From contig JBIOWF010000229.1 in the NCBI GenBank assembly GCA_044868295.1, positions 12,651 through 76,650 of the forward strand: a DNA stretch of 64,000 nt. The letters are read 5' to 3'. A program made the translations under genes and the position numbers. Positions 14,150-39,998 of this stretch are shown here, piece after piece. Source of the stretch: Microtetraspora sp. Its GTDB lineage: Bacteria > Actinomycetota > Actinomycetes > Streptosporangiales > Streptosporangiaceae. Every line of letters starts with the position of its first letter. Position 1 is the first letter of the stretch. The notes under the pieces were generated by a model, which worked only from the letters and a program-made list of their open reading frames with translations, was not told where the DNA came from and ran no database searches.

Positions 14150-14889
14150 CAGATCACCGGTTCGAATCCGCCCACCCAGCCCTGCAGCCCCGCGACGAGG
14201 TCCCCCCAGAGGCCGGTGACGAGCAGCAGGCCGACGGCGACCAGCATGGCACCACCGACGCGCGTGATGAGCGGGGAGTGGCGGCGGACCGTCTTGAACG
14301 CGGCCAGCGCCTTGCGATAGGCCAGCCCGGCCAGCACGAAGGGAAGCCCGAGACCCAGCGCGTACGCGAAGGCGAGCGTGGCGCCACGGGCGGCGCTGCC
14401 CTGGTCGACGGAGAGCGTGAGGACCACGGCGAGCGTCGGCCCGATGCACGGCGTCCAGCCGAGCCCGAAGACGACACCGAGCAGCGGCGCGCCCGCCAGC
14501 CCGGCCGCCGGGAGCCGGTGGATGCGCATGTCGCGCTGGAGGCCGGGAATCAGGCCGAGGAAGGCCAGGCCGAGAACGATCGTCAGACCGCCGAGCACGC
14601 GGGTGATGACGTCGGCGCTGCCGAGCAGAACGCCTCCGAGCCCGCCGAACAACGCGCCGCCCAGCACGAACACGGCCGCGAAGCCGAGGACGAAGAGGGC
14701 ACTGCCGAGGACCATCCGGCTCCGCTTCGGGTCGCCGCTCATGCCCGTGACGTACGACAGGTAGCCGGGGACCAGCGGCAGCACGCACGGCGAGAGGAAC
14801 GACACCAGGCCGGCCGCCACCGCGATGGGCACGGCGACCAGGAGCGAGCCGGAGGCGACGGTGCCGGCGAGGTCGGTGGCCATGGTCAT
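14149..14889 (-). CDS. ccdA: Cytochrome c biogenesis protein CcdA
   Basis: 246 aa membrane protein with SPCVLPLVPGYL and TPCIGP motifs. Confidence 0.9.
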   Translation of the reverse strand: MTMATDLAGTVASGSLLVAVPIAVAAGLVSFLSPCVLPLVPGYLSYVTGMSGDPKRSRMVLGSALFVLGFAAVFVLGGALFGGLGGVLLGSADVITRVLGGLTIVLGLAFLGLIPGLQRDMRIHRLPAAGLAGAPLLGVVFGLGWTPCIGPTLAVVLTLSVDQGSAARGATLAFAYALGLGLPFVLAGLAYRKALAAFKTVRRHSPLITRVGGAMLVAVGLLLVTGLWGDLVAGLQGWVGGFEPVI

Positions 14890-14898
14890 GCCGTCACG

Positions 14899-15471
14899 TC
14901 ACTTGCTCTCATCGCTGACCTGGGTGACCGCCGTCAGGAGCTCGTTGTACTTGACGGCGCCGAGGGCGCGGGCGGCGATGCGGCCCTGCCTGTCGATGAT
15001 CAGAGTCGAGGGGATGGCCGCCGGAGGGACGGTGCCCTGGAAGGCGAGCAGGACCTTGCCGGTCTTGTCGAAGATGCTCGGATAGCCCGGCTGGAGGGCG
15101 CGGTCGTAGGCCTGGGCCGATGCCTGGAGGTCCTTGAAGTTGACGCCGACGAACTCGACGCCGTCGCCCTTCGTCCTGGCCGCGATGTCCTTCAGCACCG
15201 GCGCCTCAGCCCGGCAGGGGGCGCACCAGGAGGCCCAGAAGTTCAGGACGTAGACCTTGCCCGAGCCGAGCCCGGCCGTACCGCCGTCAAGGGTCGCACC
15301 CTCGACCACCGGGGCTTTCGCGCGGTCCGCGGCGTCGAACACCTGAACCTTGCCGTCGCCCGCGATGAAGCGCGTGTCGCCGGACTGCGGCTGCGCCGCC
15401 TGACCGCCCGCGCACCCGGCGACGGCCGTCACGGCCAGCGCGGCGATCACATACAGGCTCTTGGCGGACAC
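14899..15471 (-). CDS. TlpA/ResA-family thiol-disulfide oxidoreductase (lipoprotein)
   Basis: GTG at 15471 with AGGAG upstream. Lipobox AVAGC and a thioredoxin WCAPC motif. Upstream of ccdA-resB-ccsB. Confidence 0.85.
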   Translation of the reverse strand: MSAKSLYVIAALAVTAVAGCAGGQAAQPQSGDTRFIAGDGKVQVFDAADRAKAPVVEGATLDGGTAGLGSGKVYVLNFWASWCAPCRAEAPVLKDIAARTKGDGVEFVGVNFKDLQASAQAYDRALQPGYPSIFDKTGKVLLAFQGTVPPAAIPSTLIIDRQGRIAARALGAVKYNELLTAVTQVSDESK

Positions 15472-25747: not shown

Positions 25748-26676
25748 AGTGCCTGTTCCCCCATCAACGTGCCGGCCCCTTCGGCGATCATGGCGGCCGC
25801 GAGCTCGCGACCCAGGCCCATGGCCGCCGGAGAAGGTCCGGAGGTGGACTTGCGCACTGATCGGACACCGTCGATGGCCACGACGGCGGCGGTCAGGTTG
25901 AGAATGTGCCCGTCAACGGAGGCGAACGCACCTACCGGCGCCGCGCAGCCCGCCTCAAGGGCCGAGAGCACCGCCCGCTCCGCGGTGACCGCGGCGCGGG
26001 TGTGCGAATCGTCCATGACGCCCAGCAGCTCGATCAGATCGGCGCGGGTGGCCAGGCACTCGACGGCGAGCGCGCCCTGACCCGGCGCGGGCAGCATCTC
26101 GTCGACCTCGAAGATCTGGGAGATCTCGCTGTCCCGGCCGATCCTGGCGAGCCCGGCCGCGGCCAGCACAACCCCGTCCAGCTCGCCCGAGGTGACCTTG
26201 CCGATGCGGGTGTCCGCGTTGCCCCTGATCGGGACGTAGTGCAGGTCCGGCCGCAGCGCGCGCAGTTGCGCGATGCGGCGCGGAGAGCCGGTGCCGACCT
26301 TCGCGCCCGGCGGCAGATCCGAGAGCGGGGCCGGGCCGACCAACGCGTCACGCGGGTCGTCACGCGGCGATATGGCGGCGATCACGATCCGCTCGTCCAC
26401 CGCCGTCGGCAGGTCCTTGAGCGAGTGGACCGCGAAGTCGATCTCACCGTCGATGAGCTTGGCACGCAGCTCGCTGACGAACACCCCGGTGCCGCCGAGC
26501 TGCGTGAGCTGGGCCTTCGTGACGTCGCCGAACGTCGTGACGCCCACGAGCTCGACGCTCCGGCCGGTCAGCGCCGTCAACCGGTCGGCCACGAGCTGGG
26601 ACTGCGTGGTCGCCATCAGGCTCTTGCGGGTGCCGAGCCGCAACGGGCCGTCGTGGCCGTGCATTCGCTCGCTCAT
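25744..26676 (-). CDS. hemC: Hydroxymethylbilane synthase (porphobilinogen deaminase)
   Basis: The ATG at 26676 is preceded by GGCGAGGGGG. The protein reads MSERMHGHDGPLRLGTRKSLMATTQSQ... The TTG at 26727 from the ORF track is rejected. Confidence 0.9.
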   Translation of the reverse strand: MSERMHGHDGPLRLGTRKSLMATTQSQLVADRLTALTGRSVELVGVTTFGDVTKAQLTQLGGTGVFVSELRAKLIDGEIDFAVHSLKDLPTAVDERIVIAAISPRDDPRDALVGPAPLSDLPPGAKVGTGSPRRIAQLRALRPDLHYVPIRGNADTRIGKVTSGELDGVVLAAAGLARIGRDSEISQIFEVDEMLPAPGQGALAVECLATRADLIELLGVMDDSHTRAAVTAERAVLSALEAGCAAPVGAFASVDGHILNLTAAVVAIDGVRSVRKSTSGPSPAAMGLGRELAAAMIAEGAGTLMGEQAL

Positions 26677-26783
26677 GACACCCCCTCGCCTAGCGGCTCG
26701 GGGTCTGGTCGTGCCGAAGGCGCGCAATTCGACACTTCGCGAAACGCACTGTGCTTATCGATTCGCTCGCTACGCTCGCTCAT
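26673..26783 (-). repeat. MIRU-like intercistronic element, proximal copy, 36-aa mini-ORF (MSERSERIDKHSAFREVSNCAPSARPDPEPLGEGVS) ending on the hemC ATG
   Basis: The ATG at 26783-26781 overlaps the TGA of the distal copy. The TGA at 26675-26673 overlaps the hemC ATG. Nearly identical to the distal copy apart from an in-frame 27-nt length difference (a ~30-nt block replaces one TGC codon). Confidence 0.85.
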
Positions 26784-26863
26784 GACACCCCCTCGCCTAG
26801 CGGCTCGGGGTCGCATTCGCGAAACGCACTGCGCTTATTGATTCGCTCGCTACGCTCGCTCAT
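26780..26863 (-). repeat. MIRU-like intercistronic element, distal copy, 27-aa mini-ORF (MSERSERINKRSAFRECDPEPLGEGVS) starting on the hemA stop
   Basis: The ATG at 26863-26861 overlaps the hemA TGA (ATGA). The TGA at 26782-26780 overlaps the ATG of the next copy. Confidence 0.85.
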
Positions 26864-37327: not shown

Positions 37328-37364
37328 AGGAGTTACAGCGCTCCTCGGCTCGTCATGATTCCGT

Positions 37365-38528
37365 TCACGGCATCGGATCCAGCCCGTGGTAGGGGAAGAC
37401 CGCGTTCCGGGTGGCCATGATCGCTTGATCGATCGGGTCTCCCGGATCGTAGCCTGCCGAGATGTCGCGGAAGTCCGGGGTGCGCCCATCTGACATCGTC
37501 AGCGGCGGCGTCTCTCCGGTCCGGTCCCGCACCAGGGTCCGCCAGCTCTGCGGCGTCGTGGTCGCCGGATCGATGGGACTGCCCGCCGCCTCGGCGATCA
37601 GATGGGTCCACGCCCGCGGCACGACCTGGACGAGCTCGTAGCCCCCGCCTCCCGTGGCGACCCATCGCCCGCCGGCGGTCTCGTGGGCCAGCCGGTGCAG
37701 CGCGGCGTAGGCCGTACGCTGACCGTCGACACTGAGCATCAGATGGGCCAGCGGGTCGAGGGCGTGGCTGTCGCACCCGTGCTGCGTCACGAGCACCTGC
37801 GGCCCGAACTCGCGCAGCAGTGGCGGCACGACGGCGTGGAAGGCGCGCAGCCAGTCGCCGTCGCCGCAGCCCGCCGCAAGCGCGACGTTGACCGCGGTGC
37901 CCTGGGCGCCGGTCTCGCCGGGGAATCCGGTGCCCGGAAACAGGGTGCGCGGGCTCTCGTGCAGGCTGATCGTGAGCACCCGCGGATCGTCGTGGAACAG
38001 GGCCTGGACCCCGTCGCCGTGATGCACGTCCACGTCCACGTAGGCGACCTTCGACGCGCCCTGTGAGAGCAGCCACGCGATCGCGACCGCCGGGTCGTTG
38101 TAGACGCAGAAGCCACTTGCCGTGTCCGCCATGGCGTGGTGCAGCCCGCCCGCCACGTTCACCGCGTGTTCGGCCCGGCCGGTCCACACCGCCCTGGCCG
38201 CCTCCAGAGTCGCTCCCGCGATCAGCGCCGAGGCCTCGTGCACTCCCGCGAAGGCGGGGTTGTCGGCGGTGCCCAGCCCGCAACTCAGATCGGGCCTGCC
38301 CGTCGCGGAGACGCCCTTGACCGCATCGATGTAGTCCCGTTTGTGCACCAGCGCGAGCTCGTCATCACTGGCCGGCTCGCAGCCGGACAGCTCGACCCCG
38401 TCGAGCACGCCCAGATCACGGGCGAGCTCCATGGTCAGCTCGACGCGCACGGGTGCGAGCGGATGCCCGGGGCCGAAGTTGTACGACGTCAGCGCGTCGT
38501 CCCAGACCACCCGGACCGCGTCGCTCAT
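37365..38528 (-). CDS. acuC: Acetoin utilization protein AcuC (histone deacetylase family)
   Basis: 387 aa with HDAC motifs (GGLHHA, VDVDVHHGDGVQ). Confidence 0.9.
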   Translation of the reverse strand: MSDAVRVVWDDALTSYNFGPGHPLAPVRVELTMELARDLGVLDGVELSGCEPASDDELALVHKRDYIDAVKGVSATGRPDLSCGLGTADNPAFAGVHEASALIAGATLEAARAVWTGRAEHAVNVAGGLHHAMADTASGFCVYNDPAVAIAWLLSQGASKVAYVDVDVHHGDGVQALFHDDPRVLTISLHESPRTLFPGTGFPGETGAQGTAVNVALAAGCGDGDWLRAFHAVVPPLLREFGPQVLVTQHGCDSHALDPLAHLMLSVDGQRTAYAALHRLAHETAGGRWVATGGGGYELVQVVPRAWTHLIAEAAGSPIDPATTTPQSWRTLVRDRTGETPPLTMSDGRTPDFRDISAGYDPGDPIDQAIMATRNAVFPYHGLDPMP

Positions 38529-38584
38529 CTCGCCCCCTCGCCTGCCGGCTCGGAGCCGGGGCCGCGATCGCTTCGCTCCGTCAT
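38525..38584 (-). repeat. MSER-family element acting as a leader mini-ORF (MTERSDRGPGSEPAGEGAR, 19 aa) coupled to the acuC start
   Basis: ATG at 38584. The TGA at 38527-38525 overlaps the acuC ATG (ATGA). The sequence ATGACGGAGCGAAGCGATCG...CCGAGCCGGCAGGCGAGGGGGCG matches the 5-prime and 3-prime modules of the hemA|hemC copies. Confidence 0.7.
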
Positions 38585-38813
38585 GCCCTCGAAATTACCT
38601 GAAGCCGCAGAAGGCCCCGGCTTCAGGGCGGGGATGAACGCGGTCCCCGTCGGGGGACGGCCCGCCTTCAGGCGGGACAACCGGAGCGCGCAGCGCGGAC
38701 CAGGGGTTCTTGTAGGCGATGTTCGGGTCGCGGACCGACCGCCGGAGCACCACCGCCGGCACCTCGCCCGGCCACGCCCGCCCGACATCGGTTCCCGGCA
38801 TCCGGCACCAAGG

Positions 38814-39998
38814 TCACTCCGTCCGCAGAGCGATCACCGGGTCCAGTTTCCCGGCGCGCCGGGCCGGGGCGACACCGAAGAACACGCCGACCGCCGCCGA
38901 AACACCGAATGCCAGCGCGATGGACCACGAGGTGATCGCGGCCGGGACCGGAGACACGGCCTGGATCAGCAGCGCGCCGCCCACCCCGATCAGGATGCCG
39001 ATCAGCCCGCCGATCGTCGTCAGGAGCACCGCCTCGATGAGGAACTGGCCCAGGATGTCCCGCTGACGGGCGCCGAGCGCCTTGCGCAGACCGATCTCCT
39101 TGGTCCGCTCCCGGACGCTGACCAGCATGATGTTGGACACGCCCACCCCGCCGACCAGCAGCGAGATGCCGGCGATCGCGGCCAGCACACCGGTGAGCAT
39201 GCTGAGGACCGTGCCGATCGTGCCGAGCAGTTGAGTCTGGGTCACCGCGGAGAACTTCTCGTCCGGATAGCGGGTGTTCAGCGCGTCGACCACCCGGCGC
39301 TGCAGCGGCTCGATCTCGTCCGGGCCGGAGGCGCCCACCGCGATGCCGTTGATCCTCGACAGGCCGATGAGCCGCTGTGCGGTGGTGACCGGGATGTGCA
39401 CCTCCTGGTCGCGCGCCACGCCGAAGGTGGAACCCACCGTCTCGTACACGCCGATCACCCGGAACCGCACGCCCGCGATGGTGACCTGCCGTCCGAGCGG
39501 ATCGACATCGCCGAACAGCTTGCCCGCCACCTCAGCGCCGAGGATGGCCACCCTCCGGCGCGTGTCGACGTCGGTCTCGCTCAGGTGCCTCCCCCGGCGC
39601 AGCGGCCGGTCGAAGATGTTGGGCAGGTTCTCGTCGGTCCCGGTCAGCGTGGCGAACACCTCGGTCCGGCCCACCCGCACGGACTCGCCCGAGTTGACGG
39701 CCACCGTCACCTTCGACGGATCCCCGACGACCCGCCGCACGTAGGCGACGTCCGACAGGTCGAGCCGGCTCTGCGTGGGCGCCGCACCGAGACCGACCTG
39801 GCCGGGAACGACCAGGATGATGTTGCTGCCCAGCCCGGCGATCTCCTTCTCGACCGCGTTCTTGGCACCCGTGCCGATCGCGACCAGGATCACCACCGCC
39901 GAAACACCGATGATCACACCGAGCATGGTGAGCGTGCTGCGCAGCCGGTTGACCCGCAGCGCCTCCAGGGCCATCCGCAGCGCCTCGGCCGTCCTCAC
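38814..39998 (-). CDS. ABC transporter permease (MacB/FtsX family)
   Basis: 394 aa with an N-terminal TM helix, a large periplasmic domain and a C-terminal FtsX 3-TM module. Confidence 0.9.
   Translation of the reverse strand: MRTAEALRMALEALRVNRLRSTLTMLGVIIGVSAVVILVAIGTGAKNAVEKEIAGLGSNIILVVPGQVGLGAAPTQSRLDLSDVAYVRRVVGDPSKVTVAVNSGESVRVGRTEVFATLTGTDENLPNIFDRPLRRGRHLSETDVDTRRRVAILGAEVAGKLFGDVDPLGRQVTIAGVRFRVIGVYETVGSTFGVARDQEVHIPVTTAQRLIGLSRINGIAVGASGPDEIEPLQRRVVDALNTRYPDEKFSAVTQTQLLGTIGTVLSMLTGVLAAIAGISLLVGGVGVSNIMLVSVRERTKEIGLRKALGARQRDILGQFLIEAVLLTTIGGLIGILIGVGGALLIQAVSPVPAAITSWSIALAFGVSAAVGVFFGVAPARRAGKLDPVIALRTE

Follow-up and report, generated by a model that had tools for sequence, protein, structure and literature searches.

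A candidate MIRU-like mini-ORF at the probably leaderless ancestral start of an acuC-like gene in Microtetraspora sp.

The stretch of DNA analyzed here (the window, 64,000 nucleotides) comes from contig JBIOWF010000229.1 of Microtetraspora sp. (assembly GCA_044868295.1, a 5.09-Mb draft genome denoted G000 below), and positions given without a contig label refer to this whole stretch. Its minus strand encodes an acuC-like protein of the histone deacetylase family, preceded immediately by a 60-nt segment (38584-38525, minus strand, ATGACGGAGCGAAGCGATCGCGGCCCCGGCTCCGAGCCGGCAGGCGAGGGGGCGAGATGA) that appears to be a shortened copy of a repeat resembling the interspersed repetitive units of mycobacteria (MIRUs). 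The segment translates to MTERSDRGPGSEPAGEGAR*, a mini open reading frame (mini-ORF) of 19 codons with ATGA at each end, and the TGA of the mini-ORF sits inside the ATGA that holds the start ATG of the acuC-like gene (-4 overlap). An earlier interpretation made without database searches (hereafter, the sequence-only reading) had described the 60-mer, its ORF and the TGA/ATG overlap in the same way, in exact agreement with the sequence. The features of the locus are as follows.

37365..38528, minus strand: acuC-like gene of the histone deacetylase family (PF00850, 280 bits), with a start conserved in orthologs.
38525..38528, minus strand: downstream ATGA, in which the mini-ORF stop TGA overlaps the acuC ATG; second direct-repeat arm.
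38525..38584, minus strand: candidate shortened copy of the MIRU-like element, the 19-codon mini-ORF MTERSDRGPGSEPAGEGAR; a 56-nt insertion compared with the sister lineages.
38533..38553, minus strand: 3' module CCGAGCCGGCAGGCGAGGGGG, including the Shine-Dalgarno (SD)-like GAGGGGG (24.1 bits, inside the range of the family).
38568..38584, minus strand: 5' module ATGACGGAGCGAAGCGA (consensus NTGAGYGAGCGAAGCGAG), a weak match of 16.1 bits.
38581..38584, minus strand: upstream ATGA, start codon of the mini-ORF and probable site of the ancestral leaderless acuC start; the other direct-repeat arm.
38592..38597, minus strand: -10-like hexamer of the TANNNT type, TAATTT, part of the box GGTAATTTC and separated from the downstream mini-ORF ATG by 7 nt.

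The acuC-like product consists of 387 amino acids with a single family assignment, Hist_deacetyl; NCBIfam provides no curated name for this gene or for the phosphatase gene that follows it. Orthologs align with the product from residue 1 and have a common N-terminus, MS.SVRVVWDDA, so that, judging by the alignment, the annotated start codon is correct. The SD-like sequence GAGGGGG is located 4 nt before this start codon, within the 3' module of the element. A GAGGG also precedes the mini-ORF but ends only 1 nt before its ATG, which leaves the mini-ORF without a properly spaced SD.

Clear copies of the repeat, which is denoted here the MSER family, are found in the window at the hemA/hemC junction (26673-26863) and at a nuo junction (~2040-2128). 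The family consensus starts with the 5' module NTGAGYGAGCGAAGCGAG and closes with the 3' end GAGCCGNNAGGCGAGGRGG; the pattern of the 3' module, GAGCCG-NN-AGGCGAGGRGG a few nucleotides before the terminal NTGA, is present in the acuC copy. Compared with the copies between hemA and hemC, the acuC copy has the same 3' module, a weakly matching 5' module, and the same reading frame, NTGA overlaps and peptide ends, M[ST]ERS[ED]R ... EP[LA]GEG (MTERSDR...SEPAGEGAR in the acuC copy against MSERSER...(P/S)EPLGEG(VS/DV) in the family). It differs from them in that the central domain of ~35-40 nt is replaced by 14 nt, in that it is single rather than tandem and lacks an upstream cistron, and in that it falls below the detection level of a whole-length profile. 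The claim of the sequence-only reading that the element combines the modules of the hemA/hemC copies without their middle part therefore holds for the 3' module and the missing middle, whereas the 5' module is a weak match (16.1 bits).

In the phylogenetic tree of AcuC, G000 is the sister group of L034, a metagenome contig, and L005, the locus of genome G013 (support 96/92). The upstream permease is orthologous in both relatives (91% identity in L034 and 87% in L005), and the sites compare as follows.

L034: GGTAGCGTCGCGGGC-ATGA-GTCAGG (empty).
L005: GGTACGGTCGTGGAC-ATGA-GTCAGG (empty).
G000: GGTAATTTCGAGGGC-ATGA-[52 nt]-ATGA-GCGACG (filled).

Thus, in the two relatives, the box is followed by 7 nt and ATGAGT, with no SD, whereas in G000 the box and 7 nt are followed by ATGA[52 nt]ATGAGC. 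The difference is an insertion of 56 nt with direct repeats of ATGA at its edges, and the box keeps exactly the same spacing to the ATG. The 6-7-nt geometry that is seen in other branches and in distant outgroups favors an insertion in the G000 lineage.

The box itself is conserved far beyond the sister lineages. The regions upstream of acuC were taken from 40 related genomes and from metagenome contigs and are not alignable overall, but 17 of the 18 relatives whose AcuC is at least 76% identical possess a box GGTAnnnTC, with TANNNT inside (L004 has the variant TGTAACGTC). Eight of those relatives lack an SD and have the acuC ATG 6-7 nt after the end of the hexamer; in the remaining box-bearing relatives, the box is followed by a 30-84-nt leader with an SD. 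Among non-redundant orthologs, a TANNNT located 5-8 nt before the start is found in 24 of 91, compared with 5 of 728 control positions, and an SD is absent in 23 of these 24, whereas 53 of the 67 others possess one. In the published signature of actinobacterial leaderless genes, TANNNT is found 7-12 bp upstream of the transcription start site (TSS), and the base at +1 is a purine, usually preceded by C (-1) and followed by T (+2) (PMC3898074); TAATTTcgagggCATG in G000 agrees with this geometry. Here, 7 nt separate the box GGTAATTTC from the mini-ORF ATG and 63 nt separate it from that of acuC. Apart from the hexamer TAATTT, the 285-nt intergenic region contains no TANNNT, whichever strand is read, and the element does not contain a single TA dinucleotide. 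A search for E. coli-type promoters, a scan that is uninformative for actinobacterial promoters, returned nothing. With TANNNT at ~6-8 nt and no spaced SD as the marks of a leaderless start, TAATTT, 7 nt and the ATG at 38584 show both, and the mini-ORF ATG probably stands where an ancestrally leaderless acuC gene had its start, behind the conserved box. This position, which the sequence-only reading had not perceived, would explain why the copy can stand alone.

In a census of the family copies in G000, several that look like orphans turn out to be second units in tandem arrays, whereas three copies precede first genes. One of these is murA. All the murA relatives examined have TANNNT, 6-7 nt and a GTG start, a leaderless arrangement (e.g., TTACTCTggcggtGTGAATGAAGAGG), whereas in G000 (contig C235) the region reads TTACTCTtagccgGTGA, an element of 31 codons (nhmmer E=5e-9), GTGAGCGAAGAGG; the full-length element (C235:3861-3953) lies between a conserved TACTCT box (+6 nt) and murA, with GTGA at both ends. 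In G013 (L117), the 5' half of the element is fused to murA in frame, behind a short leader that carries an SD. The other gene encodes an ArsA-like ATPase. Its relatives read TAGCCTtcgaaatGTGAGCGCTCGC-GACACC, with a leaderless GTGAG start, whereas in G000 (C328:28823-28870) a 33-nt in-frame insertion that corresponds to the 5' half of the element follows the leaderless GTGAG, with the box TAGCCT and 6 nt before the start. As a result, the N-terminus VSAR-DTDW of the relatives becomes the extended, element-derived VSVRNERTTGHSRAR-DTDW in G000. By these sequence comparisons, acuC is one of at least three genes at which the family occupies the NTGA of a start codon that relatives appear to use leaderlessly. 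The proposal of the sequence-only reading that a stand-alone copy supplies a mini-ORF and an SD to a first gene is supported by the membership of the acuC copy at the level of modules, the lack of an abutting cistron, the empty sites in L034 and L005, and the parallels at murA and the ArsA-like gene.

The interpretation that we favor, with a probability of roughly 70%, is that a shortened in-frame copy of the MSER element inserted, with duplication of an ATGA target, on the start codon of an ancestrally leaderless acuC-like gene, and that the resulting leaderless mini-ORF relays ribosomes to acuC; the transcription start, the translation of the mini-ORF and its coupling to acuC are predictions. 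Because the element's own ATG leaves TAATTT 7 nt upstream, the predicted transcript begins with the A of the ATG at 38584 or with a nucleotide adjacent to it. Ribosomes would initiate leaderlessly on the mini-ORF, translate its 19 codons, terminate at the UGA that overlaps the acuC AUG (AUGA), and re-initiate on acuC with the aid of GAGGGGG. The element itself would not be a conserved regulator but an insertion that is neutral, either selfish or a relic, and it could be tolerated because it carries a start codon, a stop-start overlap and a ribosome-binding site for the host gene.

Several observations weigh against this interpretation. The acuC copy is not among the 16 copies that an iterated whole-length nhmmer profile of the family finds in the draft genome; in a relaxed search, its alignment is limited to positions 53-76 of the profile (7 bits; genome-wide E=20), so that the formal alignment for which the sequence-only reading had called gives no significant match with a whole-length local profile. 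The score of the 5' module, 16.1 bits, is below that of every seed copy (18.5-27.8). Within the three-taxon clade alone, a gain in G000 and a loss in the ancestor of L034 and L005 are equally parsimonious, and the direction of the change rests on the outgroups. The genomes compared are only ~82-84% identical to G000 in AcuC (the best metagenome match is 83%), and the collections compared include no genome of the same genus. The three nucleotides that precede the hexamer are AGG in G000, compared with CGG in most relatives. The fold of the 66-nt leader shows nothing unusual (z=+0.40) and gives no sign of a selected structure or of a hairpin that would sequester the SD, so that coupling is not structurally enforced. 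Finally, L036 (metagenome contig ERZ777003 NODE-23068) possesses an identical GGTAATTTC box followed by an 84-nt leader before acuC, and the 3' part of this leader and the G000 element agree in 26 positions out of 32, with a nominal p of 0.018 in a set of 9 comparisons; because of this likeness, the insertion could be older or recurrent.

An ancestral leader common to G000 and its relatives was considered as a source of the segment and rejected: local alignments of the G000 leader with the leaders of 9 relatives are not significant, with the exception of L036. The word GCGATCGCGG is found in both the G000 and L006 leaders, but this word is frequent, occurring 198 times in the genome. In L036, no stop codon interrupts the frame between a GTC, which stands at the leaderless position, and the ATGA overlap, and by sequence likeness this leader may be an older copy with a decayed start codon.

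The rival explanation that survives best turns on the region upstream of the element, which contains two further features.

38598..38627, minus strand: strong GC hairpin (hp3) of 10 bp, predicted by folding (-20.7 kcal/mol), which abuts the -10 box and has no clear U-tract.
38814..39998, minus strand: MacB/FtsX-type ABC permease gene, the nearest upstream cistron, orthologous and syntenic in L034 (91%) and L005 (87%).

According to this explanation, the transcript starts elsewhere, at another promoter or through read-through from the ABC operon, the mini-ORF is translated little or not at all, acuC is initiated via GAGGGGG, and the element is a passive leader. Several points are compatible with it: on a longer transcript, the mini-ORF ATG, which lacks a properly spaced SD, would be expected to initiate poorly, the element provides acuC with an SD at normal spacing, and the lack of a clear U-tract in hp3 makes read-through conceivable. 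However, the intergenic region offers no TANNNT other than the conserved box, whose distance from the mini-ORF ATG (7 nt) equals that between the box and acuC in the sister lineages, murA and the ArsA-like gene repeat this geometry, and in the MIRU precedent the TSS is the first base of the MIRU (PMC4128351). A passive leader thus appears unlikely.

The permease gene stops at 38814, leaving a 229-nt gap before the element. This gap can be considered non-coding because the frame that is closed by the TGA of the 5' ATGA comprises merely 13 codons, the GC content at the codon positions is not that of genes, and the ORFs of more than 60 amino acids have no Pfam match. Specifically, the GC content at the third position is 0.63-0.82 in all three frames, compared with 0.89-0.93 in the flanking genes, and that at the second position is 0.63-0.82 in all three frames, compared with 0.47-0.52. 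A hidden small gene was accordingly rejected: the two candidates, ORFs of 68 and 87 amino acids, are without a Pfam match, and the composition at the first, second and third codon positions is non-coding in all frames. The absence of an abutting upstream cistron, with the permease about 230 nt away, had been correctly perceived from the sequence, and so had the three consecutive GC hairpins upstream of the element, which map to ~38598-38675 (-9.1, -6.5 and -20.7 kcal/mol). The fold of the region 38500-38830 is no better than that of shuffled sequences (z=-0.16), and the idea that the hairpin cluster is a dispersed repeat of the repetitive extragenic palindrome (REP) type was discarded since it has matches of only 15-19 nt, which is the chance level. 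The hairpin hp3 may serve to terminate transcription of the ABC operon upstream, conceivably as an I-shaped terminator, in which case it would overlap the acuC promoter in its -35 region. The spacer between the permease and acuC genes varies among relatives: it is 44 nt in L034 compared with 285 nt in G000, and that of G013 (L005) contains ~7 tandem units of 21 nt similar to CCGAGTGAGTCGCACTCCGCT, so that different repeats expand the spacer in different lineages.

A second rival explanation concerns the identity of the 60-mer: the 56 additional nucleotides could be an ordinary lineage-specific 5' untranslated region (UTR) with a purine-rich SD that resembles the family by chance or convergence. 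The whole-length profile misses the acuC copy because the central domain is missing, and therefore the two end modules were scored separately throughout the genome with matrices built from the other copies, and their co-occurrence was compared with the expectation. The 3' module scores 24.1 bits, within the range of the seed copies (20.9-28.1), and only 9 genomic sites reach this score, namely, 6 seed copies, the acuC candidate, and sites on C109 and C315, the last two in element-like contexts. The 5' module is far less specific given that 58 sites, many of them inside genes, reach its score. Nevertheless, the expected number of chance pairs, a 5' module followed by a 3' module within 150 nt, is ~0.008, both modules are in the reading frame of the family and flush with the ATGA boundaries, and the ATGA...ATGA direct repeat agrees with the empty site. 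Across 151 genomes (~1 Gb), a strict two-module pattern matches only the acuC site and one full-length copy in G141, and the reversed control yields 0 matches; in the 150 other genomes of the taxonomic family, no short two-module forms were detected at zero mismatches. In favor of chance, one can adduce the profile match of only 24 aligned positions with E=20, the 5' module that is inferior to all seed copies and matched by so many sites, the frequency of GC-rich, GCGA-rich low-complexity motifs in this genome (of which GCGATCGCGG is an example), and the unrelated 30-84-nt leaders that evolved at the same place in other relatives. Against the high-scoring 3' module, reached exclusively in element-like contexts, and the frame and boundaries of the pair, chance resemblance seems distinctly improbable, and the sequence comparison supports the 60-mer as an internally shortened member of the MSER family, with the 3' half carrying most of the evidence.

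A selected regulatory leader peptide that acts on acuC by attenuation or ribosome stalling is highly improbable: short upstream ORFs (uORFs) that overlap the start of the regulated gene would suit such a role and regulatory leaderless uORFs do exist in actinobacteria (e.g., the whiB7 uORF; PMC4128351), but this uORF is absent from every ortholog examined, which argues against selection for it, its peptide is the generic one of the family with no enrichment in a particular amino acid, and the leader has neither a terminator/antiterminator alternative, nor unusual stability, nor an Rfam match. Given this ordinary fold (z=+0.40) and the absence of any Rfam hit above the threshold for the leader, no structural switch is proposed as part of the relay from mini-ORF to acuC.

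On the other side of acuC, the spacer before the phosphatase gene had been suggested to contain a degenerate remnant of the element (37330-37355). This suggestion does not hold: the two modules score -2.7 and -0.8 bits at this place, and the spacer is orthologous in L034. The G000 and L034 spacers can be aligned (GGAATCATGACGA..AGGAG.GCTGTA), and the spacer is common to these two but not to other relatives. In G000, the minus strand of 37328-37364 contains a short ORF of 7 codons that starts from ATGACGA and ends with TAA, with no match to the MSER modules; the L034 counterpart, also starting from ATGACGA, has 10 codons and extends into a GTGA overlap with the phosphatase start. Because the L034 ORF reaches this overlap, the spacer ORF may be, judging from its sequence, an older relay element that is unrelated to the MSER family. 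Elsewhere in G000, contig C109 contains three tandem copies of the MSER element at one junction (minus strand, offsets ~14705-14945) and, at ~19514, a degenerate copy whose 3' module is good but whose 5' module has decayed, directly before a tpiA-like gene that starts with MSRKPLMAGNWK.

Taken more broadly, the three first-gene copies raise the prospect, for which the odds are about even, that the family targets the NTGA of start codons with or without an upstream cistron, and that its own 5' NTG lands on leaderless genes in such a way that the spacing between start and promoter is kept, each landing converting the gene to a leaderless uORF and dependence on an SD. If so, nature would have provided, at acuC, murA and the ArsA-like gene, before-and-after experiments on a switch in the mode of translation initiation, and the three pairs of filled and empty sites suit a comparison of leaderless and uORF-coupled initiation in actinobacteria. 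Loss of the element's stop codon would, in addition, give proteins new N-terminal extensions. For genome annotation, the consequence is that such copies give rise to short leaders that are spurious, to apparent uORFs and to N-termini derived from the element, as in the ArsA-like protein of G000 and MurA of G013.

The length classes I-III of MIRUs differ by internal deletions. MIRUs (Supply et al. 1997) are 40-100-bp units oriented like the host gene, and the stop of the ORF that they carry overlaps the start of this gene; their insertion takes place at start codons, with the ORF coupled at -4 and a minimal effect on the host gene (PMC12548453). Filled sites show tetranucleotide direct repeats and relatives have empty sites (PMC3184786), and 17 of the 24 MIRU loci with variable number tandem repeats (VNTR) are in 5' UTRs (PMC4128351). 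The acuC element resembles MIRUs, with a length of 60 nt including both ATGAs, location on the acuC strand, its own ORF stop at -4, filled and empty sites with a tetranucleotide direct repeat (ATGA), and a family whose copies differ in length by internal deletion and are found at operon junctions, as tandem arrays and within 5' UTRs; it differs in that the host belongs to another actinomycete lineage. The closest case is parA, which is leaderless in Mycobacterium marinum, whereas the M. bovis gene (Mb3239c) has a 77-nt 5' UTR that consists of an entire class I MIRU (Dinan et al. 2014, PMC4128351). At both parA and acuC, the element splits a conserved promoter from an ancestrally leaderless start, but the TSS of parA was measured whereas that of acuC is predicted. 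The leaderless uORFs of mycobacteria (Shell et al. 2015), as they are presented in PMC12548453, are likewise short ORFs without an SD at the 5' end of the transcript that seem to serve solely to deliver ribosomes downstream; the acuC uORF, known here from sequence, differs in being derived from a repeat and is taken to be recent. By analogy, then, no new kind of system is revealed: the arrangement at acuC is the same phenomenon as the MIRUs in another actinomycete, with M. bovis parA as the published precedent. What is new is the probable start of the mini-ORF at an ancestrally leaderless start behind a conserved -10 box, together with two independent parallels in the same genome, such that a non-mycobacterial MIRU-like repeat would act at first genes as true MIRUs do, between the promoter and an ancestrally leaderless start.

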